Below, piece after piece: positions 3,191 through 38,141 of a DNA stretch of 64,000 nt. Source of the stretch: Candidatus Latescibacterota bacterium (lineage in GTDB: Bacteria; Latescibacterota; UBA2968; UBA8231). How positions within the stretch are numbered: the first letter of the stretch is position 1; each line of letters opens with the position of its first letter. Location of the stretch: assembly GCA_965203175.1 (NCBI GenBank), contig OZ241867.1, positions 32,001 to 96,000 on the forward strand. Direction: 5' to 3'. A program made the translations under genes and the position numbers. The notes beneath the pieces are model-generated. The model made no database searches. It was not told the origin of the DNA and saw nothing but the letters and a program-made list of their open reading frames with translations.

Positions 3191-4264
3191 TCAATTGTCG
3201 ATCTGCACCTTTTCGCCAGTTTCCGCGCTCGCGTAAATCGCGTCCAGCAACTTCATGAAGGTCAGTGCCTCGGCGGGAGAGACATCGGGCGGCTGGGCAC
3301 CGCGAATCGCGCCGGCAAAATCGCGGATCTCCGCGTTGAAGTCGCCGTCGCCGTGTTCCACAAACCCACCAGTGGAATCGTCACCTTCAGCGTAGATGGC
3401 ACCCAGCAACCGGCGCGTCCCCGCACGTCTCTTGCCCTCGGGCAGCGAAGTGGATTCCACCTCAATCGTGCCATTCGTACCCAGGACGCGCAAGCGCAAA
3501 TCCCACGCCCGATCCGCCCAAGTGGAAATGACCGAGGAAGTATCCATCTGAATTGTCATACCGCCGGCGCAGCCCACCAGAAAACTCATGTAATCCTCGG
3601 AGTGGCGCTCTACTTCTAGGGTCGTTGGAAACGCGCTGTGGCTGACGGCAAAGGCCCATTCGGGTTGCGGACAACCCAGTAAAAACCAGGCCTGATCGAG
3701 GTAGTGCGAACCGTGTTGGCCCAATGCACCGCCCTTAAGACCCCACCGATATATCCAGCTCCTGCCCGGCGACGGCTCGTAATGGGCTCCCCGCTCGCGA
3801 TAGTGATAGTGGACGCGCGCGTGGTACGCGCGCCCAATCCTTCCAGCGGCGATCATTTGCCGGCTCTCTTTGTTCTCCGCTTGGTGCCGCATGAAGTAGG
3901 AGTACACGAGCGTTTTCCCCGTGCTTGCTGCAACGGCGTTGATCTCCTCGACGTCTGCGGCATTGCGACCGTGCGGCTTCTGCACCAACACGTGCTTTCC
4001 CGCCTCCAGCGCCTCAATGACCATTGGCTTCCGCACATCGGGTGCGGTGGCGACTCCAACGGCTTCGACCTCGTCATCGGCGAGCAGCTCTCGATAGTCT
4101 CCGTAGACTCTGGAGACATCGTTCGCCTCGGCGACCTGTCGCGCCAAATCTCGATCCAGATCGGCGACCGCCCAGGCAATGGTATCTTCGCCGATGTGGG
4201 CACCTGCTACCCAAGTCCTGCCAACTCGGCAGCCGATTACGCCCATTTTAATTTTATCTGTCAT
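3191..4264 (-). CDS. Gfo/Idh/MocA family oxidoreductase
   Basis: N-terminal GVIGC Rossmann, AGKHVLVQKP (EKP variant), GGALGQHGSHYLD; ATG 4264 follows AGGAGG. Confidence 0.9.
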   Translation of the reverse strand: MTDKIKMGVIGCRVGRTWVAGAHIGEDTIAWAVADLDRDLARQVAEANDVSRVYGDYRELLADDEVEAVGVATAPDVRKPMVIEALEAGKHVLVQKPHGRNAADVEEINAVAASTGKTLVYSYFMRHQAENKESRQMIAAGRIGRAYHARVHYHYRERGAHYEPSPGRSWIYRWGLKGGALGQHGSHYLDQAWFLLGCPQPEWAFAVSHSAFPTTLEVERHSEDYMSFLVGCAGGMTIQMDTSSVISTWADRAWDLRLRVLGTNGTIEVESTSLPEGKRRAGTRRLLGAIYAEGDDSTGGFVEHGDGDFNAEIRDFAGAIRGAQPPDVSPAEALTFMKLLDAIYASAETGEKVQIDN

Positions 4265-6104: not shown

Positions 6105-8273
6105 TCAATCCATTTCTGCAAAGCGGTGCAACACGTTCTCAGTAATGCGAGAGACATTGTTGTCGCCGTGGTTGTACGAAAGGCAACTGCACCAGCTAAT
6201 AGAGCCCACCGAGAATACCGCGCCGCCCTTGGGGCCTTCAAAGTACACCATGTCGGATCGCACCAAAGGGTTCTGGCTGCCGCCGGTATTGGGGGCCGAG
6301 ACCAACTGGTCTTCAATGGCCACTTGGTACAGATCGGTGAAGCCCTCGGCCGAAGCGAGCAATAGGGCGTGGTCGGGCGTGCCCAAGTCGCGGTCCATCC
6401 GGTCGATCTCAAAGCCGCCAGCGCCGTGTTCCAGGACCAGGGCGGGAAAGTCGCCGATCAATTCCTCGGGATCTAGGCCCTCAAAGATAAAGGCCGCCCT
6501 CGGGTCCAAACTGTCCGGCTGCCGTTTATAGGGGCGGTTGCGACCGCCGCCCTGAGAGGTAAAACCAACGCCGACCATTTTTTGCGGTGCCCGGTTGCGA
6601 AAGCGCCAGAGGCCACCCATCTCGCCCGTGGTGCTGTGAAAGCACTCGCCAGGGGCGGCCTCCCAAGCGCGTGAGCCTCGCCAGCGCCTGACTTCGACGA
6701 TGTGCGGACGCTGGGGGTCGAAGGAGGCGATCCAGTAGAAGCCATTGCCGCCTAGGTACATCAGGCGGCCGCCCTCCGCCTGGTACGCTTCCAGCCCTTT
6801 GAGCATAGACGCCGTCCAGTACTCTGGATGCGTGCCGGTGAGGATCACCTGGTACGGCTCCAACAACTCGCTGCCTTCGCAGTGCAACTCGTCGTCGGTG
6901 ATCACATCGTAGGCAAAGCCCTTGGTGTCCAGCCAGTCGAGCAGATGGAGATCGGCGTTGAGCAGGCGGGGCCAGTGCGCGGCCAAGGAACGGGAGGGCA
7001 TGCGGTACAGGGGACGAAAATTGACGATCGGCCGCCGCCGCGACGAATAACAAACACCCGTGCCGTCGCTGTGAAGGTCGTAACAGCTCAAGAGCCGCTG
7101 GTCCTGCATATACTGGTCTTGCGGAGCGGCGTCGCTGCTTTCGCGCAGATCCAGCATGGCGCGGATCGGATCGTTAAAGCGCTGGTTGGCATAGACCAGG
7201 TACGTGAGCGTGGGCACCAGAAAGGCGATGCGGGCCTGGGCTTTTTCGGGGACGACGATAAAGGGCAGATAATCCTCGGCGTCGGCACCGGTCAAGTGAG
7301 CCGCGTACACGCCGCTCGGCCAGTCTGGGGGCACGGTCCACTCGAAGGCGGCATCCCATTGGGCGTCTTCGAGATCGTCGTCGTGGAAGTGAATCGCCCC
7401 GTACTGGCTGGGGGCGACTTTGAAATCCGCCTCGTCGCCGGTCCAGTTGTGCCCGGTCACGGCCCGGGTCGGCAGGTTGACCGTACGGCCGTGGAGTTGG
7501 TTGGCCTCGGTGTCGCGCACTATTTCCGCGCCGATATCGAGAGAAAAGTCCCAGTCGGCGATCGGGGTGTCGGCCTCGGCCTCCGCCACGGAGAGAGCGC
7601 GGCTATAGAGTCGCGGATTGTCGATCTTGCCATTGAAGTGGTGAGTAGCCACTGGCCCCGAGGCAGCGGCCATTAGCAAATCCTCCTCATTCTCTCCCAC
7701 AGCTAGGGGGCTGATGGTTTTGCAGACCTGTGCTCGGGCACGGGGCACCGGCCAGTTGGACTGCAACTCTTGGTAGAGGCAGACTGCGCCCGTGGCCGCG
7801 TCGTAGCTGGCGGCGATACAGTGCCATTGCGCTGTGTGTAGGGCCACGCCGGTGCTCATTTTTTCCAGCCGCGTTCCATCGCCGACCCACAGGGCCAGTG
7901 ACCCGTCCTCGGCGATAAAGAGGCCATAGCCCGATTGGCCGGACAACTTGGTCAACAGCCCTTGCAGACCCTTTTGCGGCGTGGTGGGATAAATCCACGC
8001 CCGCAGGGTAAACCCATTGGGACAATTCAACAAAGGGTGATGCGGCACGGCCGCGTACGAGCCGCTGTGGATGGCCTGGTACTGGCCCGGGTACTCGCCG
8101 CTGATCGAGGATGCGAGCGCTTCGATTTTGCAGCCGGGACCTTGGGGATTGGCGTCCGTATGCCGCAGGCGCACGAGTTCGGCGCGGTACGCGGGCGCTT
8201 CGCTGCTGACCATAAAGCGTATGGTCTGCCCGGGCCGCACGCTGAAACGATCGCTGTACCCGACGATTTTCAT
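6105..8273 (-). CDS. N,N-dimethylformamidase beta (large) subunit family protein with LamG-like insertion
   Basis: MKIVGYSDRFSVRPG start, LamG-like 'FNGKIDNPRLYSRALS', TYLVYAN, SCYDLHSDG, HPEYW, MYLGGNGFYW, VFSVGSISW. Confidence 0.88.
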   Translation of the reverse strand: MKIVGYSDRFSVRPGQTIRFMVSSEAPAYRAELVRLRHTDANPQGPGCKIEALASSISGEYPGQYQAIHSGSYAAVPHHPLLNCPNGFTLRAWIYPTTPQKGLQGLLTKLSGQSGYGLFIAEDGSLALWVGDGTRLEKMSTGVALHTAQWHCIAASYDAATGAVCLYQELQSNWPVPRARAQVCKTISPLAVGENEEDLLMAAASGPVATHHFNGKIDNPRLYSRALSVAEAEADTPIADWDFSLDIGAEIVRDTEANQLHGRTVNLPTRAVTGHNWTGDEADFKVAPSQYGAIHFHDDDLEDAQWDAAFEWTVPPDWPSGVYAAHLTGADAEDYLPFIVVPEKAQARIAFLVPTLTYLVYANQRFNDPIRAMLDLRESSDAAPQDQYMQDQRLLSCYDLHSDGTGVCYSSRRRPIVNFRPLYRMPSRSLAAHWPRLLNADLHLLDWLDTKGFAYDVITDDELHCEGSELLEPYQVILTGTHPEYWTASMLKGLEAYQAEGGRLMYLGGNGFYWIASFDPQRPHIVEVRRWRGSRAWEAAPGECFHSTTGEMGGLWRFRNRAPQKMVGVGFTSQGGGRNRPYKRQPDSLDPRAAFIFEGLDPEELIGDFPALVLEHGAGGFEIDRMDRDLGTPDHALLLASAEGFTDLYQVAIEDQLVSAPNTGGSQNPLVRSDMVYFEGPKGGAVFSVGSISWCSCLSYNHGDNNVSRITENVLHRFAEMD

Positions 8274-25459: not shown

Positions 25460-25618
25460 TCTTGTGCCTTAGCAAGAAAACTGCGGGAGTAACCCCGCAA
25501 AACAGGTTGACTCAACCTTGAAAAAGCTACTCTTGGCGCTTGGACAATAGCAAGGGGAAACTCCCGGTTGTGGACAATCGCTTTGCCAATCCGCTCTTAT
25601 CCTTACATTATAGGGTCT

Positions 25619-26416
25619 ATGACCGCTATGACCGCAGACCAAAAGACACTGGTGTCCTCGCCTTGCAAAAAGCGCGATCAGCAGCTAGCGCACTACCTCC
25701 GCGACCTAGCCCTGGAGCAGATGCCCGCCGAGGATCTTTTGCGCTGGGCCAGCGAGACCTTTCCCGGCCGGGCCGTACTCAACACCAGCTTCCAGTACAC
25801 CGGCGTGGCGATGATCCACATGGCGACGTCCATGGGGCTGAATTTGCGCTTTGCCACCATCGACACCCTCCGGCTCCATCCCGAGACGTACGCCTTTATG
25901 GAGAAAGTCAAAGCGCGCTACGGCTGCCGCTTCGAGGTTGTCCAGCCCAAGCGCGGCGATGTCGAGCGGATGGTCGCGCGCCACGGCGAGTATTTGTTTT
26001 TCGATTCCAAGGAAAAACAGGAGCACTGCTGCCAAGTGCGGAAGGAATGGCCCAACAACGCGCTGTTGCAGACCGCCGACTGCTGGATTTCGGGACAGCG
26101 CTGGGACCAGTCCGAGCATCGCCAGCAGACGGCCAAGAAGATGGCCTTGATTGACGAGTACAGCACCCGGCGCAAAATACTCAAGCTCAACCCATTGGTC
26201 GATTGGAGCGAAGAGGCGCTGATGGAGTTTACGCGGGCAAACGACTTGCCAGTGCATCCGCTCTACGGCCAAGGCTACCCGAGCTTTGGCTGCATCATTT
26301 GCTCCACCCCGATCCGGCCCGACGAACCCAAGCGCAACGGTCGCTGGCGTTGGTTCAACGAACAAGCCGACGTCGCGGATGACCACAAAGAGTGCGGGCT
26401 GCACTACAACATCTGA
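25619..26416 (+). CDS. cysH: Adenylyl-sulfate (APS)/PAPS reductase, Fe-S type
   Basis: IDTLRL, CCQVRK, KLNPL, GYPSFGCIIC, GRWRW, C-terminal ECGLH; the CC...CxxC motif indicates a [4Fe-4S] APS reductase. Start 25619 or 25628. Confidence 0.92.
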   Translation: MTAMTADQKTLVSSPCKKRDQQLAHYLRDLALEQMPAEDLLRWASETFPGRAVLNTSFQYTGVAMIHMATSMGLNLRFATIDTLRLHPETYAFMEKVKARYGCRFEVVQPKRGDVERMVARHGEYLFFDSKEKQEHCCQVRKEWPNNALLQTADCWISGQRWDQSEHRQQTAKKMALIDEYSTRRKILKLNPLVDWSEEALMEFTRANDLPVHPLYGQGYPSFGCIICSTPIRPDEPKRNGRWRWFNEQADVADDHKECGLHYNI

Positions 26417-26429
26417 GAAAAATCGAGCA

Positions 26430-26780
26430 ATGGCCCCCGCCTTGGAATGGCGCTACCACCGCCCCGGCTGAACGAGCTGCAAGCGCGCACAAGAGTTTCT
26501 TGTGCAAAACAACATTGCCGACGGCATGGTGCAAAGTGCAACTAAAGAACCGGTCGCGGGCACGGCAGCCCTCGCCCTGCTCGAGGACGCGACCGAGTTG
26601 TTCGTCGCCCAAGGGCAGCAGGTACTCCGCTTCGACCTGACGTCGCAGCGGCCCGCGGACGGGGAATTGCTTCAGCTTCTGTTGGGGCGTTCTGGCAAGC
26701 TCCGGGCGCCCGCATTCCGCTGCGGCACGCGCCTAATCGTCGGCTACAACCAAGCACTGCTGCCGCTGGCGTTGGATTAG
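26430..26780 (+). CDS. ArsC/Spx-like thioredoxin-fold selenoprotein (UxxC), TGA recoded
   Basis: MAPALEWRYHRPG-TGA(26469-26471)-TSCKRAQEFL...GRSGKLRAPAFRCGTRLIVGYN, continuous in frame with track ORF 26502-26780; 116 aa. Confidence 0.85.
26487..26505 (+). promoter_or_regulatory. SECIS-like hairpin
   Basis: GCACAAGA-gtt-TCTTGTGC, with a G-containing loop 23 nt after the UGA. Confidence 0.65.
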
Positions 26781-28415: not shown

Positions 28416-29810
28416 TCATACAACGCTGAGGGCGCGGACCAACCGCTTGAACAGGTCGCCGCGCTCGGCGTAACTGGCAAACTGATCGAAGCTAGCGCAG
28501 GCCGGCGAAAGCAGCACCACGTCGCCAGATTGCGCTAGGTGGCGAGCGGTGTCCAAGGCTTTGGGTAGGTCGTGGCAATAGTGGACGATTGCGCTAGCGC
28601 CTACCTGTCGTAAAGCAGCGGCGATGCGCGGGGCTTCTTGACCGATGAGCAACGCAGCGCGGACATTGGCCTCGGCAATAGCAGTGCCCAAGGCGCTGAA
28701 GTCGGCCCCTTTTGAAGCGCCACCCGCAATCAGCAATAGGGGTGCATCAAAGGCTTGAATAGCAGCACAGGCAGCATCGACCGTCGTGGCCAGTGAATCG
28801 TTGCAATAGGTAACGCCGTCGCGCTCGGCAACGTATTCGAGACGGTGGGGAAGGCCTTCAAAGGTACGGAGGGCCTCGGCGAAATGGATCGCTGGCGCAC
28901 CAAAAGCCAACGCACCGGCTACGGCAGCAGCGACATTGCTCCAGTTGTGTTGGCCCCGGAGGGGAATGTCGGCCACCGGACAAACGGCGATTGGCTGCGC
29001 CCCAGGACAACAGGCCCACAACTGGCCGTCGGCAATCCACGCGCCCGGAATGCTCGGAGTGGTTGTGCTAAAGGACCAAAGGGCAGCTGGACTCTCGTCA
29101 GCAAAGGTTCGAGCCGTAGTACAGTCCCGATTGACAATGAGGATATCGCCAGGCGTTTGGTAGCGGCACACGGGCTTTTTGGCATCGACGTATTCGGCGC
29201 GGTTGGCGTGGTAGTCGAGGTGGTCCTCGGTGACTGAAAGAACCACGGCGATGTGAGGGCTTTGGTCGAGGTCTTGCAATTGGAAGCTAGACAGCTCTAG
29301 TACAACCCGGTCGGTCGCCTGCAACTCGTCAATGAATTCGAGCGGCGGCCGGCCGATGTTGCCGCCGCTGAACACCCGTGCCGACGGATCGGTTTCCAGC
29401 AAGGCGTGCAGCAGCGCGGTCGTAGTGCCCTTGCCCTTGGTGCCAGTAATGCCGAGCACCGGCGCGGGACATAGCTGTAAAAAGAGGCGCGTCTGGCTCG
29501 ATACTTCGACGCCGCAACACTGCGCCGCACACAGGCGCGGGTCCAGCGTCGGCAGACCTGGCGTGCGAAACAGTAAGTCGAAGTCGGTCAGGTCGTCGAG
29601 ATAGCCTTCGCCGATGCGCCATTGTTGCACGCCCTCCACTGGCGTGGCCGGGTCGCGGACGTCGCACACGGCAAAGGGAATCTGGCGCGCGTGGAGAAAG
29701 TGGGCCAGCGCGCGGTTTTCCACGCCGAGGCCGAGCAGGGCAATGCGCCGCTGGTGCAGATGTTGGGTCGCGCTTGACTCTTTGGGGCTGGAGGATTTCT
29801 TTAGCGCCAT
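28416..29810 (-). CDS. murD: UDP-N-acetylmuramoyl-L-alanine--D-glutamate ligase
   Basis: GITGTKGKGTT, GGNIG, LELSSFQL, DHLDYH, HRLE, NDSLATT, LLSPACASFDQF. Confidence 0.96.
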   Translation of the reverse strand: MALKKSSSPKESSATQHLHQRRIALLGLGVENRALAHFLHARQIPFAVCDVRDPATPVEGVQQWRIGEGYLDDLTDFDLLFRTPGLPTLDPRLCAAQCCGVEVSSQTRLFLQLCPAPVLGITGTKGKGTTTALLHALLETDPSARVFSGGNIGRPPLEFIDELQATDRVVLELSSFQLQDLDQSPHIAVVLSVTEDHLDYHANRAEYVDAKKPVCRYQTPGDILIVNRDCTTARTFADESPAALWSFSTTTPSIPGAWIADGQLWACCPGAQPIAVCPVADIPLRGQHNWSNVAAAVAGALAFGAPAIHFAEALRTFEGLPHRLEYVAERDGVTYCNDSLATTVDAACAAIQAFDAPLLLIAGGASKGADFSALGTAIAEANVRAALLIGQEAPRIAAALRQVGASAIVHYCHDLPKALDTARHLAQSGDVVLLSPACASFDQFASYAERGDLFKRLVRALSVV

Positions 29811-29858
29811 TGAAATCGCAATACGCGCTTTAATTAAATTAGATAGTGAGAAGGTGCT

Positions 29859-30236
29859 GTGGCTGTAACAATTATGCGTACGGTGCGGCCTAGTCCGCAA
29901 TGGCAAGACAGCTTGATCCGGCTAGAGAGCGGCCAGCGGGTCGTCATCGATGCCGAGGAAACTTGGTCGCCGGACATGCAAAACCAAATCGCTTGGTGCG
30001 GCGCCGATGGCGTGTACAATCTGCCTGCAGGCTCGGGCTACCTACTGCCGGGGGCCAATGTCGGCGCACTCGTGGCCCGCATTGGCGACGACGGGCCGAT
30101 CTTTGCCGTGGGCAGCCGCTGCGACTTTATCGCCGATGGCGCCGGCCTCCTAAATTTGGCCATGAACGAAAACCCGAGCTTCAACAACCAAGCCGGCAAA
30201 ATCGTCGCCCAAATCATCGTCTTTAGCCGACCATGA
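29859..30236 (+). CDS. Small beta-sandwich protein, possibly LecA/PA-IL-like
   Basis: WQDS.I.L..G, GALVARIG, FAVG, LNLAMNE pattern; stop overlaps the next ATG. Confidence 0.5.
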   Translation: MAVTIMRTVRPSPQWQDSLIRLESGQRVVIDAEETWSPDMQNQIAWCGADGVYNLPAGSGYLLPGANVGALVARIGDDGPIFAVGSRCDFIADGAGLLNLAMNENPSFNNQAGKIVAQIIVFSRP

Positions 30237-31270
30237 GCCTCGCCGGCAGCGCGGCGACCGCAGCCTATGTGCGCGCGGGTCATCCACCTGTCCGCGCGAT
30301 CGCTCCGCTCGCCGAAGGGGTCTGGCGCATCGAGGACGCAGACGGCCGCAAGGTCGTGGTCAAACATCAGCTCTTCGGCCGGCTGACGCAGGGCACGGCT
30401 TACGACCTGTTGGAGGTCGAGCGCGACGTGCTCGGCTTCTTGCACAGAGCGGGTTGTCCGGTGCCCGCCGTCCTCGGCGTGGACTCAGACGACCAATGCA
30501 TCTTCTTGCAATGGGTCGGCGATCACACCCTCGACGACGCCATTCAGGACGGGGACCGGGCGGCGACTATACAGGCCATACGCGGCCTGTGCGCCATTGA
30601 GAACACGTGCGCCCAACGCGCCGACCAGCTAGAGCCGAGAGTAGTGCCGAGTGCCAACCGCGCAGCCCTCGCCGCCGCTTGGGACGAGGCGGGAACGCGA
30701 GCGCATACTGGCATCGAACAGCTATGCAGCCGTCTCCAGCAGCCCTTGGAGGCTGGGATGCAACCACTGCTCGAAACCATGCACGATTGGCTAGCGGCGC
30801 GACCAGCCGCGCTGGGCAGCGTAGATTACAACGCGCGCAACGCAATTGTCGAGCCGGGGGGTACGCGCGTTTACTTCCTCGAATTTGCCAAAATTGGTTG
30901 GGACTGGACGGAACGGCGCTTGACGCAGTATACTTCAAGTATGGGCAGCGGCCGACAAGACGGGCGCATGCGCTCGCTACTGGACGCGTCCGCAGCGCGT
31001 TTGTACGCCGAGGAATCCGGGCGCAGCGACGGTGCGCGGGCGCTCGATTATCACCGTATCTTTTTTCTTTTAAACAGCGCGGCCCTGTTGTGCGCGGCCC
31101 TCGACGGCGAGCCGCACGCGCTGGCCCTGCGCCAACACTGGAAAAGGCCCCATGCGCGGCTGCGACAATGCGCGGCCATGCTGGCCCAAAGCCTGAGCAC
31201 AGACCCAAGCGCGGCCGAGTTCAGAAGCCGGTTGCAGTTTTGTTTGTCACCACGCGGAGGTACTCTATGA
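30233..31270 (+). CDS. Aminoglycoside-phosphotransferase/kinase-like protein
   Basis: VVVK, ERDVL, PVPAV, DYNARN catalytic-loop variant, LEF in place of the usual D-F/W motif. Confidence 0.65.
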   Translation: MSLAGSAATAAYVRAGHPPVRAIAPLAEGVWRIEDADGRKVVVKHQLFGRLTQGTAYDLLEVERDVLGFLHRAGCPVPAVLGVDSDDQCIFLQWVGDHTLDDAIQDGDRAATIQAIRGLCAIENTCAQRADQLEPRVVPSANRAALAAAWDEAGTRAHTGIEQLCSRLQQPLEAGMQPLLETMHDWLAARPAALGSVDYNARNAIVEPGGTRVYFLEFAKIGWDWTERRLTQYTSSMGSGRQDGRMRSLLDASAARLYAEESGRSDGARALDYHRIFFLLNSAALLCAALDGEPHALALRQHWKRPHARLRQCAAMLAQSLSTDPSAAEFRSRLQFCLSPRGGTL

Positions 31271-31533
31271 GCGAGTGGAACACTCTCGACTTCAAGCCCC
31301 GAGCCCGGGGCATGATCATCGGCGATATTCCCTGGCTGGCGCGCATAGCCGACAAGGCGCGGGCGCACCAGCAGCAACGCATCGGCGACTACGTATTCCC
31401 CTGACCGGCTGACCAGCGCTTCCTGGAGGAAGTGGAGCTAACAGCCGCAGCATTCGAGGAGATGGTAGCCTCGTCCGCAGACGACGATGCACTAATCGAA
31501 AAGATGAAAGCGCATCTAACTAGAAAGCGCTAG
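31267..31533 (+). CDS. DUF5069-like protein with in-frame TGA (putative selenocysteine at codon 46)
   Basis: MSEW...WLARIADKARA...IGDYVFP-TGA(31402-31404)-PADQRFLEEVELTAAAFEEMVASSADDDALIEKMKAHLTRKR-TAG; ATG overlaps the upstream stop, GGAGG RBS, readthrough stop ends 1 nt before the next ATG. Confidence 0.82.
31406..31447 (+). promoter_or_regulatory. SECIS-like stem-loop
   Basis: CGGCTG..AGC-GCTTCC-tgga-GGAAGT..GCT..CAGCCG; G-containing apical loop 19 nt after the UGA. Confidence 0.65.
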
Positions 31534-31534
31534 T

Positions 31535-32422
31535 ATGAGCACCTCAGCGCAAACAACGCGCACGCCAAGGCGGAGAGTGCGGGAGATGGAGGTGGAGATC
31601 GTCCACGTGCGCCGCGACACCCCAGACACCACTACGCTCTTTATGTCGGCTGGCGACGAGCCGATCGAATACGAGGCCGGCCACTTCTGCACCATTGATC
31701 CGCATCAGTTCGGCGAGTTGGAGCACTTCACCGCCTATTTAGAAGATCAAAAGGGGCAGCGGGAAAAGCCGCGGGCCTATTCTATGGCCTCGGCACCGCA
31801 CGAAGAGCACCTCGCCATCACCATCAAAGAAGAGCGCTATGAGAGCGGTGAGACGCCGTACCCACCGCTGCTATCGCCGCTGTTGACGTACTACATCCAC
31901 GAGGGCCGGCGGCTGGTCATCAGCGGTTTTACCGGGGCATATACCTTTCCCGCCGATGTCTGCGAGCGCGCCGAGCACATTGTCCACGTATGCGCTGGAA
32001 GCGGCATCGTGCCCAACAGGAGCCTGATCAAGGAGAGCCTACACCGCGACGACCCGCTCCGGCACACCTTGCTGTTTAGTAACAAGACGCGCGGCGACGT
32101 CATTTACTTCGAGGAATTCGAGGAGTTGCGGGCACAGTACCCCGACAAACTCGAAGTCATCCACTGCATCACCCGCGAAGACCCAAGCGGCATCCGCGGC
32201 GCCCGCCAAGGGCGCATCTCTGGGGAACTCTTGTGCGAAGTCGCGCCCGACCCCTCCAAAGTGATGGCCTATAGCTGCGGCCCGGGCATCACGCCTTACG
32301 AGCGCCGGGCGGCCCGGGCCAAGGGCGAGACTCCCGAGCCGCGCTTCGTCGAAAACATGGTCGCGCTCTTGCAGGAGCACGGGCTGGACAAGAAGCAAAT
32401 CCGGCAGGAAAGCTGGGGGTGA
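31535..32422 (+). CDS. Ferredoxin-NADP reductase-like FAD/NAD(P)-binding oxidoreductase
   Basis: RAYSMAS (RxYS), AGSGIVP, YSCGP, C-terminal ESW. Confidence 0.88.
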   Translation: MSTSAQTTRTPRRRVREMEVEIVHVRRDTPDTTTLFMSAGDEPIEYEAGHFCTIDPHQFGELEHFTAYLEDQKGQREKPRAYSMASAPHEEHLAITIKEERYESGETPYPPLLSPLLTYYIHEGRRLVISGFTGAYTFPADVCERAEHIVHVCAGSGIVPNRSLIKESLHRDDPLRHTLLFSNKTRGDVIYFEEFEELRAQYPDKLEVIHCITREDPSGIRGARQGRISGELLCEVAPDPSKVMAYSCGPGITPYERRAARAKGETPEPRFVENMVALLQEHGLDKKQIRQESWG

Positions 32423-33379
32423 ATGAAGTTAATCGTGCAGATTCCCTGCTTTGACGAAGAGCAGACCCTGCCCGCTGTAATCCGCGACATCCCGCGCCAA
32501 GTGCCCGGCATCGATCAAGTCGAAATTCTGGTCATCGACGACGGCTCCAGCGACCTCACCAGCGCGGTGGCGCGCGAGTGCGGCGCAGATCACGTAATCC
32601 GCTTCCCGCACAATCGAGGGCTGGGCCAAGCCTTTAAGGCTGGTTTTGACGAGTGCCTGCGGCTGGGTGCCGATATCATCGTCAACACTGACGGCGACAA
32701 CCAGTACTACGGCGGCGACATCGACAAGTTAGTCGCGCCTATCCTCGGCGGTCAGGCCGACATGGTCATTGGCGACCGGCAGACGCAGGCCATTGCCCAC
32801 TTCTCCGCCCTCAAGCGCTACCTACAGAGCTTGGGCAGCCGGGTGATTAGTCGCCTCGCCGGCCTACAGGTGCCGGATGTGGCCAGCGGCTTTCGCGCCT
32901 TTAGCCGCGAGTGCGCGCTCCAGCTTTCGACCCTTACCAATTTCGACCACACAGCCGAGCACGTGATCGAGGCTGGATACAAGAATTTGGCCGTGATTTC
33001 TGTCGAGGTCCGCACCAATCCCAAGACGCGTGAGTCGCGCCTCTTTTCCAACATCGGCAAGTTCGTCTTCAAATCCGGGGAGATCAGCTTGCGCACCTAT
33101 GCGCGCTACGCCGCGCTCAAGATATTCGCCCTGTGCGGCATCTTGACCTTTGCCGCGGGCTTTGGCCTCGGCGTGCGCTTTCTCTACTTTTTCTTTTTTA
33201 CTGACGAAGGAATGCTGCACGTGCAGTCGCTTATTTTGGCGGCGATTTTGCTGTTGGCCGGGTTTCAGATGTTTCTCACCGGCGTCATAGCCGATCTGAT
33301 CGCCACCAATCGGGATCTGCTCGAAGATACGTTGCAGCGAGTCAAGAAGTTGGAGTTGCGCGATGCGAATAAAAAATAA
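32423..33379 (+). CDS. Glycosyltransferase family 2 (DPM1-like) with C-terminal TM helices
   Basis: IPCFDEE, IDDGSSD, NRGLG, TDGDNQY, DVASGFRA. Confidence 0.92.
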   Translation: MKLIVQIPCFDEEQTLPAVIRDIPRQVPGIDQVEILVIDDGSSDLTSAVARECGADHVIRFPHNRGLGQAFKAGFDECLRLGADIIVNTDGDNQYYGGDIDKLVAPILGGQADMVIGDRQTQAIAHFSALKRYLQSLGSRVISRLAGLQVPDVASGFRAFSRECALQLSTLTNFDHTAEHVIEAGYKNLAVISVEVRTNPKTRESRLFSNIGKFVFKSGEISLRTYARYAALKIFALCGILTFAAGFGLGVRFLYFFFFTDEGMLHVQSLILAAILLLAGFQMFLTGVIADLIATNRDLLEDTLQRVKKLELRDANKK

Positions 33380-33385
33380 TTCCAC

Positions 33386-34333
33386 ATGAAAAAACCTGTG
33401 GTTTACATAGACGGCCAAGAGGGGACGACCGGGCTGCGCATTCGCCAGATGCTAGCCGGGCGCGAGGATGTGGAGGTGTTGCTCATTCCACCGGAACATC
33501 GCCGGGACCAGCGCGCGCGGGCCGAATTTCTCAACCGCGCGGACTTGTGCGTGCTCTGCCTGCCCGATGATGCGGCAGCCGAGGCTCTCGACCTGCTCGA
33601 AAACCCGCAGACCAAGGTCATCGACACCAGCACGGCGCGCCGGGTCCATTCCGAGTGGGTCTATGGCCTGCCAGAAATTTCACCCGCCCACAAAGAACAG
33701 ATTCGCCACGCGCAGAAAGTCGCCAATTGCGGCTGTTATCCCGTCGGCTTCATCCTCGCCGTGCGGCCCCTCATCTCGCAGGGGCTGCTCCTGCCAACCG
33801 CGCCACTGGCCATCAACGCGGTGTCTGGCTATTCCGGAGGGGGGCGGTCAATGATCGCCGAATACGAAGAAGGGGACGAACACAAGCCTTTCTGCCTGTA
33901 CGGCCTCGACGGCGCGCACAAGCACTTGCCCGAGATCTGGAAATTCAGCGGGTGCGAAAAGCAGCCGCTCTTTGTGCCGTCCGTCGATCGTTCGTTCTGC
34001 GGCATGGTCGTCAGCACGCCGGTACCCACGGAACTTTTCGCCCGCCCCCGCGTCAATCGCGAAGCCGTGTACGAAGTCTGGCGCGCGTACTACGCGGACT
34101 GTCCCTTTGTGAAGGTGGTCGCACCCCAAGCCGCTGTACTGCGCGACGACAAATTCCTCGACCTAACGGGATTGAGCCACACCAACTTCGTCGAGCTATC
34201 GGTCTGGGGCGACCCAGAGCAGGGATTGATTTTGGTAGGGCGGCTCGACAACCTCGGCAAAGGAGCGTCGGGCAATGCCGTGCAGTGCCTCAACTTGATG
34301 CTCGGTTGCGACGAGACCGCAGGACTGGTCTAG
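33386..34333 (+). CDS. argC: N-acetyl-gamma-glutamyl-phosphate reductase (type 2)
   Basis: IDGQEGTTG, ANCGCYP, SGYSGGG, LDNLGKGASG. Confidence 0.95.
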   Translation: MKKPVVYIDGQEGTTGLRIRQMLAGREDVEVLLIPPEHRRDQRARAEFLNRADLCVLCLPDDAAAEALDLLENPQTKVIDTSTARRVHSEWVYGLPEISPAHKEQIRHAQKVANCGCYPVGFILAVRPLISQGLLLPTAPLAINAVSGYSGGGRSMIAEYEEGDEHKPFCLYGLDGAHKHLPEIWKFSGCEKQPLFVPSVDRSFCGMVVSTPVPTELFARPRVNREAVYEVWRAYYADCPFVKVVAPQAAVLRDDKFLDLTGLSHTNFVELSVWGDPEQGLILVGRLDNLGKGASGNAVQCLNLMLGCDETAGLV

Positions 34334-35083
34334 ATGCTCGTCGATAGCCACTGTCATCTCGACCAATTCGCCGATGCCGACGCCGTGCTCGCGGCAGCCG
34401 CCCAAGCCGGGGTGGAACAGGTCGTCGCCGTCAGCGAAAGCGCCGATTCCATGCGCGCGGTGCTCGCGCTCAAGCGTCAGTACCCGAACCAAGTGCTGGC
34501 TGGGCTGGGTTTGCATCCAGCATGGGTCACCCAAGCCACAGACGTCGAGCTCGCAGACGCACTCGCCTATTTGGCCGCGCATCTGCCCGAAGCCGATGTT
34601 CTCGGCGAAGTCGGCCTCGACTACAAATGGGCGACTAGTCCAGAGCAGCAGGCCCAGCAGCAAGACGTCCTCACGCAGCAACTCGACTTAGCGGCTCAGT
34701 GCGGCAAGCCGATCAACCTGCACTCGCGCCGCGCCCAGCGGCAGACCCTGGAACGGGTCGTGGAATTTCGCCGCCATACTAAGCTCAATGCCCAACTTCA
34801 CTGGTTCACCCAGTCCAAAAAACTCGTGCGGATCTGTCGCGCAGAGCGAATCTACGTCTCCGTCGGTCCATCCGTCCTGTGCGATCCGCAGACCCAAGCC
34901 GTGGTCGCAGAAATCGACCGCGAGTTGCTGCTGTTGGAAACGGACGCGCCCGTGCCCATTGGCGGGGCTGCGGGCCATCCAGCGCGGGTGGCAGCAGTCG
35001 CCGCCAAACTAGCCCAACTCATCGGGTTCACCGAGGAGGAGGCCGCAGCCAATTGGGCGCGCTACTTGGGCAGGCCATCGTGA
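34334..35083 (+). CDS. tatD: TatD family hydrolase
   Basis: DSHCHL, GLHP, GEVGLD, LHSR, LLETDAP. Confidence 0.9.
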   Translation: MLVDSHCHLDQFADADAVLAAAAQAGVEQVVAVSESADSMRAVLALKRQYPNQVLAGLGLHPAWVTQATDVELADALAYLAAHLPEADVLGEVGLDYKWATSPEQQAQQQDVLTQQLDLAAQCGKPINLHSRRAQRQTLERVVEFRRHTKLNAQLHWFTQSKKLVRICRAERIYVSVGPSVLCDPQTQAVVAEIDRELLLLETDAPVPIGGAAGHPARVAAVAAKLAQLIGFTEEEAAANWARYLGRPS

Positions 35084-35166: not shown

Positions 35167-36912
35167 ATGCCAACGAACATTTTTGCCCTTGCTTGTGCCC
35201 TCGTCTTTTGCGGGCTAGCAGGGCCAGCGAGTGCCCAAGGCCTAGGCAGCTTGGAAAGTCTGGTACGGGGCGAAGAGGTCAGACAACAGGCCCTTTCCGC
35301 GTCCGATCTACCGGACCTAAATCAGGATGTGATCTCTGATAAGGCGCGTCTGCCCGGCAGCTTAAGCGCGGATAAGACGCGCATCGGTCAGGATCGCGAT
35401 ATAGACCCAGACGCGTACATCGTCGGCCCTAACGACGTACTTCAGCTTTACATCTGGGGCGAATTTGACCAGCCTTACACCTTGCAGGTCAATCCAGAGG
35501 GCAATGTCCTCATCCCCACCGTCGGCTCGTTTCACATTTCGGGCCTATCGCTAACCGCGGCCAAAGAGCGCCTCTCGACCGCAGTCCAAAACAAATATCC
35601 CAACGTGGACATCAGCATCTCCCTCGTGAGTATGCGCTTCTTCACCGCGTACGTCACCGGCGCAGTGCTGAACGAGGGCAGCTTCACTATCCATCCGACT
35701 ACGCGGGTTTTAGATATAATCAAACAGGCTGGCGGCTTTGAGGGCCGATTGCAACGGGTCGCGTTGCCGGACCAAGATGCCGGTGGAGCCACGAACCGCA
35801 ACACGGGTCGGCGCTCCATCCAACTAATCCACCGCGACGGCACCAGCGAGCGCGTGGATCTCGACATGTTTCTCGCCACCGGCGACCTCGCGCATAATCC
35901 CTACGTGCGCATGGGCGACATGGTTCACGTCTCGTTTCGCAAGCATTCAGTGTCCATCTTCGGCGCGGTCAATAAAGAGGGCGAATACGAGTTCCTACCC
36001 GGGGATACCCTCGGCGACCTCGTGACATTGGCCAAGGGCTTGAACCGCTCCAAGCCGTTGGTCAGCGCCGAACTCTGGCGCTTTCAGGAAGGAACCGAGC
36101 AGGCCGAACTCATTGAGCTAGGCGGCACCAAAGAGACGCTGGAGGAACTGAACTACGAGACCATCCGCCACATTGAGCTGCGCCCCAACGACGCGATCTT
36201 TATCCGCGCGCAATCGCTGTGGCAGTCCACGCACACGGTCGTGATCTCTGGCGAGGTCCGGTTCCAAGGCCGCTACCGCATCGAACCCGGCGTTACCCGC
36301 ATCAAGGACGTAGTGGCCGCGGCCGGCGGCCTAACCGATGAGGCGTCTCTCATCGGTGCCCGAGTAATCCGCACCAAGGTCCGGGCCGAGAAAGACCCGC
36401 AGCTAGAGCAGCTAAAGAGACAGAGCGAGGTGGCGGGCCTCACCGACATGAACATTGAGGATCGGGCTTATCTCAAGACCAAAACCCGCGAAGAAAAGGG
36501 GCGGATCGCAGTCGATTTCGAGCGATTGTTTGTGGATGGCGACGAGGGGCAAAACATCTTGCTCGCCAACGGCGATGTGATCTTTTTCCCCCTGCAGCGG
36601 CACACCATCAACGTCAGTGGCCAAGTGCAGCGAGCCGGACTGATCGACTACGAGCCAGGCCGCAAAGTGCGCTACTACATAACCAAGGCCGGTGGGTACT
36701 TGTACGACGCTGACAGACGCCATGCCCGCCTAGTCCGAGCGCGCACGGGCGTCCGCGAGAAACTCAAAGACAACCTGCTAGTCGAGGTCGGCGACGAAAT
36801 ATGGGTACCCCAGAAGGAGCGCATCGATTACTGGGCACTCACCCGAGAGACTATTCCTACCGTCTTCAATATCCTGACCCTCGCGGCCTTGTTGAGGGGG
36901 GCTTTTTTCTAG
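35167..36912 (+). CDS. Polysaccharide export protein with multiple SLBB domains (Wza/KpsD-like)
   Basis: Signal peptide, YIVGPNDVL Poly_export motif, repeated V.G.V..G...AGG SLBB units. Confidence 0.88.
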   Translation: MPTNIFALACALVFCGLAGPASAQGLGSLESLVRGEEVRQQALSASDLPDLNQDVISDKARLPGSLSADKTRIGQDRDIDPDAYIVGPNDVLQLYIWGEFDQPYTLQVNPEGNVLIPTVGSFHISGLSLTAAKERLSTAVQNKYPNVDISISLVSMRFFTAYVTGAVLNEGSFTIHPTTRVLDIIKQAGGFEGRLQRVALPDQDAGGATNRNTGRRSIQLIHRDGTSERVDLDMFLATGDLAHNPYVRMGDMVHVSFRKHSVSIFGAVNKEGEYEFLPGDTLGDLVTLAKGLNRSKPLVSAELWRFQEGTEQAELIELGGTKETLEELNYETIRHIELRPNDAIFIRAQSLWQSTHTVVISGEVRFQGRYRIEPGVTRIKDVVAAAGGLTDEASLIGARVIRTKVRAEKDPQLEQLKRQSEVAGLTDMNIEDRAYLKTKTREEKGRIAVDFERLFVDGDEGQNILLANGDVIFFPLQRHTINVSGQVQRAGLIDYEPGRKVRYYITKAGGYLYDADRRHARLVRARTGVREKLKDNLLVEVGDEIWVPQKERIDYWALTRETIPTVFNILTLAALLRGAFF

Positions 36913-36938
36913 CATAAGAATCCCAGGGAGCACTCTTA

Positions 36939-38141
36939 ATGAATACCCAAAAAAAAGAAATCGACATCATCGATCTGCTAACGGCACTGCACGCGGGCCG
37001 ATGGCTGATCATCGGTGGCACCTTGGCCATCTGCGTCTTGGCCGGTGGCCTCAGCTTTCTCTTGCCAAAGGAATACGAGGCCACCGTGCAAATTCTGCCC
37101 CCCCAAGAGAAGAAGCAGAGTTTTGGTTTTTCCAGCATGCTCGCGTCCTTACCCATACCCGCCTTGCGCCTCGGGGAGAGGGGCACGCCATCTGACATTT
37201 CTCTCGCCACCATCAAGAGCGTGACGACGCGGCGGCGGATGGTCGAGAAATTCGGCTTGATGCAGCGCTACGAGGCTCGCACCCTGACCGACGCAATTGA
37301 GGTCCTCTCCGACAACACCACGGCCGCCATGACCGAAGAGGGCATGCTTGGAGTCTCAGTTCTAGACAAAGACCCGCAAACGGCTGCGGACATGGCCAAT
37401 TACTACATCGTCCTGCTCGATAGTACCAACAAGCGATTCGCGCACAAGACGGCCTCCGACCGCTTGGACTTTATCCGCGGGATTTTGCAAGAAGAAGATA
37501 AAAAGCTCGATGACAAGATGAAGCTGCTGGAGGAGTTCCAGTCCGAGCACAACGCCATCTCGATCGACGACCAAGCCCGCGCCGTGATCCTGACGGCCAC
37601 CTCAATGCAGACCGCCGCAATGGAACTCGAAATGAAGCGCCAACAACTCCTTGACTCGGGGCTCAGTCCCAACCACGATAAGGTCAAAAAGCTCGAGCGC
37701 GAAATCCTAATGCGTCAGGTGACCTTGGCTTTCTTGCGCGATGGCCGCAAGACCGCCGACAACACCATGCTGCAAAACGAATCGCTGCAACTAGAGCTAG
37801 ACGAAAACCTCTTCCTGCCGCTGAAGCAGATCCCGAGCGTGGCCCAAGAGTACGCAAACCTCGAAAAGGATGTACTCGTGCAGACGTCCCTTTTGCTGGT
37901 CCTACTGCAACAGGAGGCCCAAACCCTGATCGAGGCCAAGGACGCCACTTCGACCGTGCAGATACTCGACCCAGCCACACCACCCGAAATCAAGGCCAAG
38001 CCCCAGCGCGTGCTGATCGTATTTCTCGCCGGCTTACTCAGCCTCATCGCCTCCGTCTCCTATGTGCTGGGGGAGGTGTACATGCGGGGCCTTCAACAGC
38101 GCTGGCGCGAGCGGCACGAGACGACGCCTGAAGTTCTATGA
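36939..38141 (+). CDS. Polysaccharide chain-length determinant (Wzz/Wzc N-terminal, GNVR-like)
   Basis: [17 protein letters not shown], coiled coil, [10 protein letters not shown]...P, C-terminal TM; no kinase domain. Confidence 0.88.

Follow-up and report, generated by a model that had tools for sequence, protein, structure and literature searches.

The DUF5069 locus and its in-frame TGA

The stretch of DNA analyzed here, referred to as the window, comprises 64,000 nucleotides (nt) of a Candidatus Latescibacterota genome (assembly GCA_965203175.1, contig OZ241867.1, positions 32,001 to 96,000 of the forward strand), and it contains a small gene (31267-31533) that, judged by comparison with its relatives, very probably encodes an 88-residue selenoprotein of the DUF5069 family. 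The gene sits in a plus-strand run of abutting or overlapping genes, and its start codon (ATG, 31267-31269) overlaps the TGA stop of the upstream open reading frame (ORF) in the sequence ATGA (31267-31270). Read with standard table 11, the DUF5069 ORF ends at 31404 and yields a 45-residue peptide. The first-pass annotation of this DNA, made by a model from the sequence alone, had noticed that the same frame stays open beyond this TGA as far as a TAG just ahead of the next ATG, and both the sequence and its translation confirm this: the TGA at 31402-31404 is followed by 42 sense codons (31405-31530), a TAG at 31531-31533 and the ATG of the next gene at 31535. When the TGA is read as selenocysteine (Sec, U), the product has 88 residues, contains GDYVFP-U-PAD and has no cysteine besides U46. 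The features of the gene, in window coordinates, are as follows.

31256-31260 (+): Shine-Dalgarno-like GGAGG, 6 nt ahead of the ATG, as read from the sequence
31267-31533 (+): putative recoded coding sequence for a short-form DUF5069 protein of 88 amino acids (aa) with Sec at residue 46, from the translation and its match to PF16798
31402-31404 (+): in-frame UGA, codon 46, putatively read as Sec; aligns with a conserved Cys
31406-31447 (+): lower helix, predicted from the minimum free energy (MFE) structure, 31406-31411 pairing with 31442-31447 and extending the hairpin in the lineage of the window
31417-31434 (+): predicted core hairpin of a bacterial selenocysteine insertion sequence (bSECIS), stem 31417-31423 with 31428-31434 and loop UGGA at 31424-31427, from covariation and MFE

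An open frame following a TGA is unremarkable by itself, and the case for this gene rests on homology; a scan of the whole window found 20 places in otherwise unassigned DNA where a TGA is followed by at least 25 open codons. Two other candidates in the window were considered as selenoprotein genes and rejected. The readthrough of 3616-4203 (-) is junk, and a PAPS-reductase-like ORF (25568-26416, +) retains the Cys of its ECGLH motif and ends normally. The latter also ends in a TGA, after which 42 open codons fill a gap (25568-26545, +, including the extension), but this TGA is an ordinary stop, since the catalytic ECGLH Cys lies upstream of it and the extension is of low complexity. Both genes that flank the DUF5069 gene (30233-31270 and 31535-32422) terminate in TGA, indicating that the genome does not treat TGA as a sense codon in general. 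A scan of the operon for promoters and terminators gave results no different from those for shuffled sequences.

The readthrough product belongs to DUF5069 and the TGA aligns with a conserved cysteine

The readthrough product matches the Pfam family DUF5069 (PF16798) with 51.5 bits (gathering cut-off 27, E 1.5e-13), and the match extends over residues 11-87, that is, on both sides of codon 46. It corresponds to profile positions 4-80 of 133, which is less than the full-length domain, and by sequence the 88-aa protein and its relatives of ~90 aa appear to constitute a short DUF5069 subfamily. A search of a protein collection returned 61 homologues, mostly 87-95 aa long, with at least 95% query coverage and 51-76% identity, of which most are full-length Cys forms that carry Cys at the position of the TGA. 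In the alignment of 62 sequences, position 46 is a Cys with at least 90% conservation (consensus GDYIYPCPAD), and the family motif around it is G-D/E-Y-x-Y/F-P-C-P-x-D. The residues K10, P11, R12, R14, R26, D29, K30 and P45, among others, are invariant in the short subfamily, and R32, R38, Y42, Y44, C46 and D49, among others, are nearly so.

A wider profile search of 1.84 billion representatives found 503 proteins at E <=0.001, of which the 150 listed ones were aligned. In the 169 domain matches of these 150 proteins, the Cys column is occupied by Cys in 110, by Ser in 26 and by a gap in 17. Twelve of the 150 listed representatives stop exactly at profile position 45 and therefore look like truncated predictions of further TGA forms. 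Six proteins of 310-441 aa (P0064, P0073, P0074, P0081, P0077 and P0082) contain two or three tandem DUF5069 domains, and in most of these domains the Cys column holds Ser, Gly or some other residue. Fusions to other domains occur among the wider DUF5069 members, with cupin_2 in three proteins (among P0120, P0138, P0211, P0116, P0126 and P0150) and with DUF2249, a SAM methyltransferase, an AI-2E transporter, a CO_deh_flav_C fragment and DLH in single proteins; the search found no longer or fused forms of the short subfamily itself, an absence that is weak evidence.

The AlphaFold2 model of the 88-aa protein (mean predicted local distance difference test score, pLDDT, 81.3) consists of a short N-terminal beta-hairpin and four helices (residues 24-35, 47-55, 60-69 and 73-87), and residue 46 is predicted to immediately precede helix 2. 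The sole significant fold match in the PDB is 3omd_A, with a template modeling (TM) score of 0.74 on the query and a root-mean-square deviation of 1.9 A over 73 columns, and the PDB search with the model returned no Trx-like match. The profile alignment with 3omd (E 4e-12) also retains the Cys, in the motif YTYNCPLDQ. The 145-aa 3omd protein, from Leptospirillum rubarum and the sole relative with a solved structure, and the window protein thus share the fold and a Y-x-Y-x-C-P-x-D motif, whereas the window protein lacks the C-terminal third found in 3omd and typical members and would carry Sec instead of Cys. The first-pass annotation had placed the TGA at the Cys of a G-E/D-Y-x-Y/F-x-C-P-x-D motif; the alignments of the homologues, of the wider family and of 3omd all bear this placement out.

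TGA and Cys forms in other genomes

A scan of genome contigs confirmed 198 loci, of which the best 80 were taken. The codon at the Sec position in these 80 loci is TGA in 64, TGC in 11 and TGT in five; it was found by pattern in 77 loci, and the remaining three, which were read separately, all have Cys codons. The TGA is therefore not peculiar to the assembly of the window. The records that contain TGA forms are titled Latescibacterota, Gemmatimonadota, Planctomycetota, Poribacteria or unclassified bacteria, and the identity of the TGA forms to the window protein ranges from 97% down to 55-60%, with the Poribacteria forms, a well-separated clade in the tree described below, at 57-60%. The phylum labels of these metagenome-assembled genomes (MAGs) are unreliable, since near-identical cassettes bear mismatched titles: the DUF5069 gene on a contig titled 'Alphaproteobacteria bacterium' (L002) is identical to that on a Latescibacterota chromosome (L003), and two loci with near-identical cassettes (L020 and L023) are titled Gemmatimonadetes.

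Translations of the loci are conserved on both flanks of the TGA. Among 64 TGA forms (62 distinct stretches; L062 was omitted because its locus ends early), the mean entropy at codon positions 1, 2 and 3 is 0.44, 0.33 and 1.28 bits upstream of the TGA and 0.75, 0.65 and 1.26 bits downstream of it outside the hairpin described below. This codon-periodic variation downstream of the TGA argues that translation continues in frame. It also bears on the alternative that translation ends at 31404, producing a 45-residue peptide, and that the downstream 126 nt are an untranslated spacer with a regulatory hairpin. Such a peptide would match the table 11 reading, and the spacer does have stable local structure; nevertheless, we consider this explanation highly improbable, given that conservation in the supposed spacer is codon-periodic, that the DUF5069 domain and 3omd span both sides of the codon, and that the Cys-form orthologues are one continuous protein of the same length.

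The protein collection contains no near-full-length relative more than 76% identical to the window protein, while genomic loci at 92-97% identity exist, which indicates that TGA forms are routinely truncated or missed by annotation. Within the clades of Sec forms, two database proteins (P0059 and P0063) have Trp at the Sec position, most likely because of a pipeline that used a table with TGA as Trp. The same gap between proteins and loci could be taken to mean that the gene is a pseudogene whose TGA arose by nonsense mutation or through an error of sequencing or assembly, in keeping with gene callers that evidently stop at the TGA and with the lack of any Sec machinery within the window. We regard this explanation as almost certainly wrong, since TGA occupies the same codon in 64 of the 80 loci, from several phyla, the substitution pattern downstream of it is still of the coding type, and the hairpin is conserved only in TGA forms.

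A SECIS-like hairpin is conserved downstream of the TGA

The UGA at 31402 is most likely decoded by the standard bacterial mechanism, in which the hairpin 13-32 nt downstream in the coding sequence would recruit SelB with Sec-tRNA(Sec) to the ribosome, in the manner of other bacterial SECIS elements. The hairpin of the window has a 7-bp stem and a 4-nt loop with G at position 2 and again at the next position, lies 19 nt after the UGA and folds at -8.0 kcal/mol. The published bSECIS model specifies a loop of 3-9 nt, an upper stem of 4-16 bp, a G in the first two loop positions, a spacing of 16-37 nt from UGA to loop and an MFE of <= -7.5 kcal/mol (PMC13188914, section 5), and the hairpin agrees with every one of these constraints. 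A scan of the window against Rfam at gathering thresholds gave no match.

Counted from the U of the UGA, columns 16-22 pair with columns 27-33 around a loop at 23-26, and this arrangement is present at a fixed distance in all 65 TGA forms, with the loop UGGA in every case (65/65). Across 64 sequences (52 distinct), 95.1% of the cells in the stem are paired, compared with 80.7% in shuffled alignments and 34-71% when the pairing partners are slid. The covariation score is 0.346 versus 0.113 in shuffles, and none of 500 shuffles reaches it, although shared ancestry by itself can lift a score above that of shuffles. A stronger argument for the hairpin comes from the slid controls and the types of pairs: the pair 17-32 occurs as G-U, U-A, A-U and G-C, and the pair 18-31 is C-G in the Latescibacterota and Gemmatimonadota forms and G-C in the Poribacteria. 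RNAalifold independently predicted six of the seven pairs. Furthermore, entropy at the third codon position is 0.38 bits in the six hairpin codons versus 1.26 elsewhere downstream, and this low synonymous variation indicates a constraint beyond the encoded F-L-E-E.

The Cys forms differ, and the hairpin has been lost in most of them. Only three of 16 have the UGGA loop, their 18-nt cores fold with a median MFE of -1.9 kcal/mol versus -8.0 kcal/mol for the TGA forms, and the core folds at or below -7.5 kcal/mol in one of 16 Cys forms versus 42 of 65 TGA forms. The first-pass annotation had described a long stem-loop with a G-containing loop after the TGA. Such a structure is indeed present in the window, where a 48-nt stem-loop with the UGGA loop folds at -19.1 kcal/mol, but only the upper 7-bp hairpin is conserved in relatives; the lower helix is paired in only 67.9% of cells and is therefore lineage-specific or weakly conserved. 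In Escherichia coli fdhF, the bSECIS is a hairpin within the coding sequence downstream of the UGA with a small, G-containing apical loop. The hairpin of the window resembles it in lying in the coding sequence right after the UGA and in presenting a G in a small loop ~20 nt away, and differs from it in its 4-nt UGGA loop and its plain 7-bp stem, in which no bulged U is evident. Together, the alignment of the TGA with Cys, the TGA orthologues and the SECIS-like hairpin provide strong comparative support for the recoding of the TGA as Sec that the first-pass annotation had proposed.

Points that weigh against selenocysteine

Several observations weigh against this interpretation. None of selA, selB, selD or a tRNA-Sec gene was found within the 64-kb window, where SelA, SelB and SelD domains were looked for with Pfam in 10 proteins and 46 further ORFs. 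The counts of loci overstate the number of independent observations, since ~25 of the 64 loci with TGA are closely related to the window, at 92-97% identity. When only the 18-nt core is folded, 23 of 65 TGA forms are weaker than -7.5 kcal/mol, the minimal hairpins of two Poribacteria loci (L072 and L075) fold at -6.5 and -6.9 kcal/mol, and a 69-nt stretch folded as a single sequence does no better than shuffles (z -0.70). Some of the conservation of the hairpin is protein-driven, because part of it encodes the conserved F-L-E-E. With regard to function, the set of domain fusions is heterogeneous and offers no single hint, and the nearest solved structure, 3omd, is itself uncharacterized.

The lack of Sec machinery in the window would also fit a UGA that is read without selenium as Trp, Cys or Gly, by near-cognate suppression or local recoding, the hairpin merely stimulating readthrough. 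ARAGORN predicted no tRNA of any kind in the window or in the 80 related loci, and the Trp at the Sec position in P0059 and P0063 could be cited in favor of this alternative if it were not most likely the artefact described above. We consider insertion of a standard amino acid improbable. The hairpin fits the bSECIS consensus in loop, stem length and spacing, the recoded site is a conserved Cys and hence a classic Sec/Cys pair, and TGA terminates the neighboring genes. In addition, Sec-containing hydrogenase variants are reported from Poribacteria MAGs (PMC13582414), so that at least one of the carrier phyla reportedly uses Sec; the available portions of two other papers that mention Latescibacteria contain nothing on Sec use in that phylum.

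Evolution of the Sec and Cys forms

A quick maximum-likelihood tree of 78 rows was built after masking the Sec/Cys column and omitting L030, L063 and L064. It requires a single Sec/Cys change, with the 13 Cys forms in one group (SH-like approximate likelihood ratio test, SH-aLRT, 84) inside the TGA forms, and when all 81 rows are considered, two changes are needed. The alignment has 88 columns, many forks are unresolved and the midpoint root serves for display only, so that the view of Sec as ancestral and Cys as derived is a reading of the tree and not a result. The 80-locus sample, which consists of the best matches to a Sec form, is furthermore biased toward relatives of Sec forms. That some Cys forms still carry the hairpin nevertheless supports an ancestral Sec. 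L030 has TGT at the Sec position and retains a SECIS-like hairpin (6136-6183, -8.0 kcal/mol), and L063, with TGC, retains the hairpin core UUCC-UGGA-GGAA (6124-6171). By their sequence, these hairpins look like fossil SECIS elements left by recent replacement of Sec with Cys.

Selenocysteine as the candidate reactive center

In the small helical domain, Sec would take the place of the conserved Cys next to invariant Arg and Lys residues. Based on the model, it is most likely the reactive (nucleophilic or redox) center of the protein, because it replaces a conserved Cys, precedes helix 2 and adjoins the cluster of invariant Arg and Lys residues. The N-terminus of a helix is a common position of redox-active Cys and Sec. 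We infer that a single selenol or thiol at the helix N-terminus, beside a basic patch, may act on an anionic ligand or a partner protein. The protein lacks a second Cys, so that any redox cycle would have to depend on a partner or a small molecule. At the Cys column, 26 of the 169 domain matches have Ser, chiefly those from the tandem-repeat proteins, which indicates that redox chemistry is not needed by every member of the family.

Neighboring genes and their linkage to DUF5069

The genes around the DUF5069 gene are listed below.

29859-30236 (+): orf125, LecA/PA-IL-like beta-sandwich, first gene of a three-gene module (Pfam, AlphaFold2, Foldseek)
30233-31270 (+): APH-like phosphotransferase with a protein-kinase-like fold, 345 aa (weak NCBIfam matches, feature neighbors, residue pattern)
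31535-32422 (+): FNR-like FAD/NAD(P)H oxidoreductase without a ferredoxin domain (PF00175, E 2.7e-14)
32423-33379 (+): GT2 glycosyltransferase, similar to polyprenyl-phosphate sugar transferases (PF00535, E 4e-21)
33386-34333 (+): ArgC (Pfam and NCBIfam matches)
34334-35083 (+): TatD (Pfam match)

The product of orf125 has no significant family match and only a weak one to Pfam PA-IL (E 0.026), and its AlphaFold2 model (pLDDT 78) is matched by Foldseek to the lectins PllA, EclA and LecA at TM scores of 0.57-0.60. It appears to be cytoplasmic. Across the relatives, no gene of the cassette is better conserved than orf125, which keeps 69-98% identity where the adjacent kinase drops to ~40%. The 345-aa ORF overlaps both of its neighbors by 4 nt, and orf125 is translationally coupled to it. 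This ORF has no Pfam match, weak NCBIfam matches to APH(3') and Bud32 (E ~0.003) and language-model feature neighbors in PF01636 APH clusters; its invariant residues K44, E63, D198, N203 and D224 form a Lys, Glu, D-x4-N, Asp pattern that we take to be a kinase-like active site. The FNR-like protein has partial NCBIfam matches to PaaE/Hcr-type reductases, all far below the equivalog cut-offs, so that no specific enzyme name applies, and its translation contains RAYS, GSGIVP and CGPG, presumably the FAD-binding RxYS, GxGxxP and CGP motifs of FNR-like reductases. The GT2 gene has partial NCBIfam matches to AglJ/PpgS-type models.

Linkage was counted as the presence of a same-strand homologue within 3 kb in the 77 loci whose codon was located by pattern. 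By this measure, orf125 accompanies DUF5069 in 54 loci, the APH-like kinase in 56, the FNR-like reductase in 40 and the GT2 transferase in 39. Among the Sec forms, 30 of 64 have the FNR gene next to them, as do 10 of the 13 Cys forms. All four genes are missing beside 16 Poribacteria loci and five others; the neighbors in the Poribacteria loci are UPF0182, PheA and QueG. The FNR gene is also missing from several Sec-bearing clades of Latescibacterota and Gemmatimonadota. By this gene-order comparison, the better-conserved partners are the two upstream genes, orf125 and the kinase. In the lineage of the window, DUF5069 is the third member of a tightly overlapping module that consists of a LecA-like protein, an APH-like kinase and DUF5069 itself, with FNR and GT2 often next. 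A predicted complex of the kinase with the Cys-form DUF5069 protein of L037 scored 0.00 against a mark of 0.32, which speaks neither for nor against binding.

The first-pass annotation had coupled the selenoprotein to the adjacent reductase. The adjacency itself holds, with FNR following in 40 of 77 loci, but the absence of FNR from whole Sec-bearing clades makes the coupling a lineage-specific possibility and not a property of the family, and the two upstream genes, which the first-pass annotation did not bring up, are linked more widely. If, in line with this idea, the FNR-like NAD(P)H oxidoreductase were to reduce the oxidized Sec again, several features of the locus would fall into place: the FNR gene begins 1 nt past the TAG in the window and overlaps the DUF5069 stop in L037, its product lacks a ferredoxin domain of its own and so needs an external acceptor, and the model places Sec at a helix N-terminus, a position typical of redox-active residues. 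We nonetheless consider recycling by FNR unlikely. FNR is missing in 37 of 77 loci, among them all 16 from Poribacteria. A simple intramolecular redox couple is not evident in a protein with no second Cys, and the Ser seen in 26 of the 169 domain matches speaks against redox function being obligate across the family.

One flank of the operon consists of polysaccharide export genes (Wza-like Poly_export/SLBB and Wzz/GNVR, 35167-38141, +) and the other of a divergent gene of the Mur-ligase family (28416-29906, -). These flanking genes suggest a cell-envelope or glycan context for the cassette.

Comparison with known selenoproteins

DUF5069 appears to be new as a selenoprotein family, as the first-pass annotation had supposed when it noted no awareness of DUF5069 as an established one. 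The word 'DUF5069' was not found in a search of ~8.4 million papers and preprints, and neither PF16798 nor DUF5069 occurs in the text or in Table 1 (119 prokaryotic families or subfamilies) of a 2026 review (PMC13188914). NCBIfam release 20, which includes the NF04xxxx selenoprotein models cited in that table, gave no match for the window protein at E <=0.01, nor, at E <=1, for one Cys form and one form from Poribacteria. There is no mention of DUF5069 in the available portion of the deep-Sep paper and no 'DUF' term in the main text of BSepDB (PMC13326102), whose family list (Table S2) lay outside the comparison, and none of the source names of the 61 homologues says selenoprotein.

The window protein has much in common with the DUF-type bacterial selenoproteins of the review (DUF523, DUF3179, DUF1573 and DUF1858; PMC13188914, Table 1). 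In both, one in-frame UGA falls on a conserved Cys, orthologues with TGA and with Cys are spread over different organisms, and a small G-loop hairpin lies 16-37 nt after the UGA; both are domains without an assigned function that were predicted by comparative genomics. In contrast to the selenoproteins of that review, the window protein does not have a two-residue redox motif such as UxxC or CxxU, and its model, helical with one short beta-hairpin, is unlike the Trx-fold selenoproteins with UxxC or CxxU. The carriers differ as well: Desulfobacterota and clostridia recur among the example organisms named in the deep-Sep paper and in BSepDB Table 2, whereas the carriers found here are MAGs labelled Latescibacterota, Gemmatimonadota and Poribacteria.

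Implications

Taken as a whole, DUF5069 may represent a new selenoprotein family in which Sec is older within the short clade and the selenol is the reactive center of a conserved cytoplasmic module, with a LecA-like sugar-binding fold, an APH-like kinase and often FNR and GT2, that carries out a selenium-dependent step in the modification of carbohydrates or glycolipids in poorly known phyla, a scenario that we put forward tentatively, as a possibility with the balance somewhat against it. The gene described here is very probably a DUF5069 selenoprotein gene, and it is invisible to standard annotation, and the same is probably true of its counterparts in dozens of related MAG genomes. Its hairpin supplies a well-conserved minimal bSECIS, with a 7-bp stem and a UGGA loop, for which natural compensatory variants are available. 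Sec at one position is the strongest pointer to a functional residue of DUF5069, a domain whose structure, 3omd, dates from 2010, and it provides a specific residue to mutate together with defined candidate partners. If correct, the assignment would enlarge the prokaryotic selenoproteome by one family, from phyla that have hardly any representation in it.

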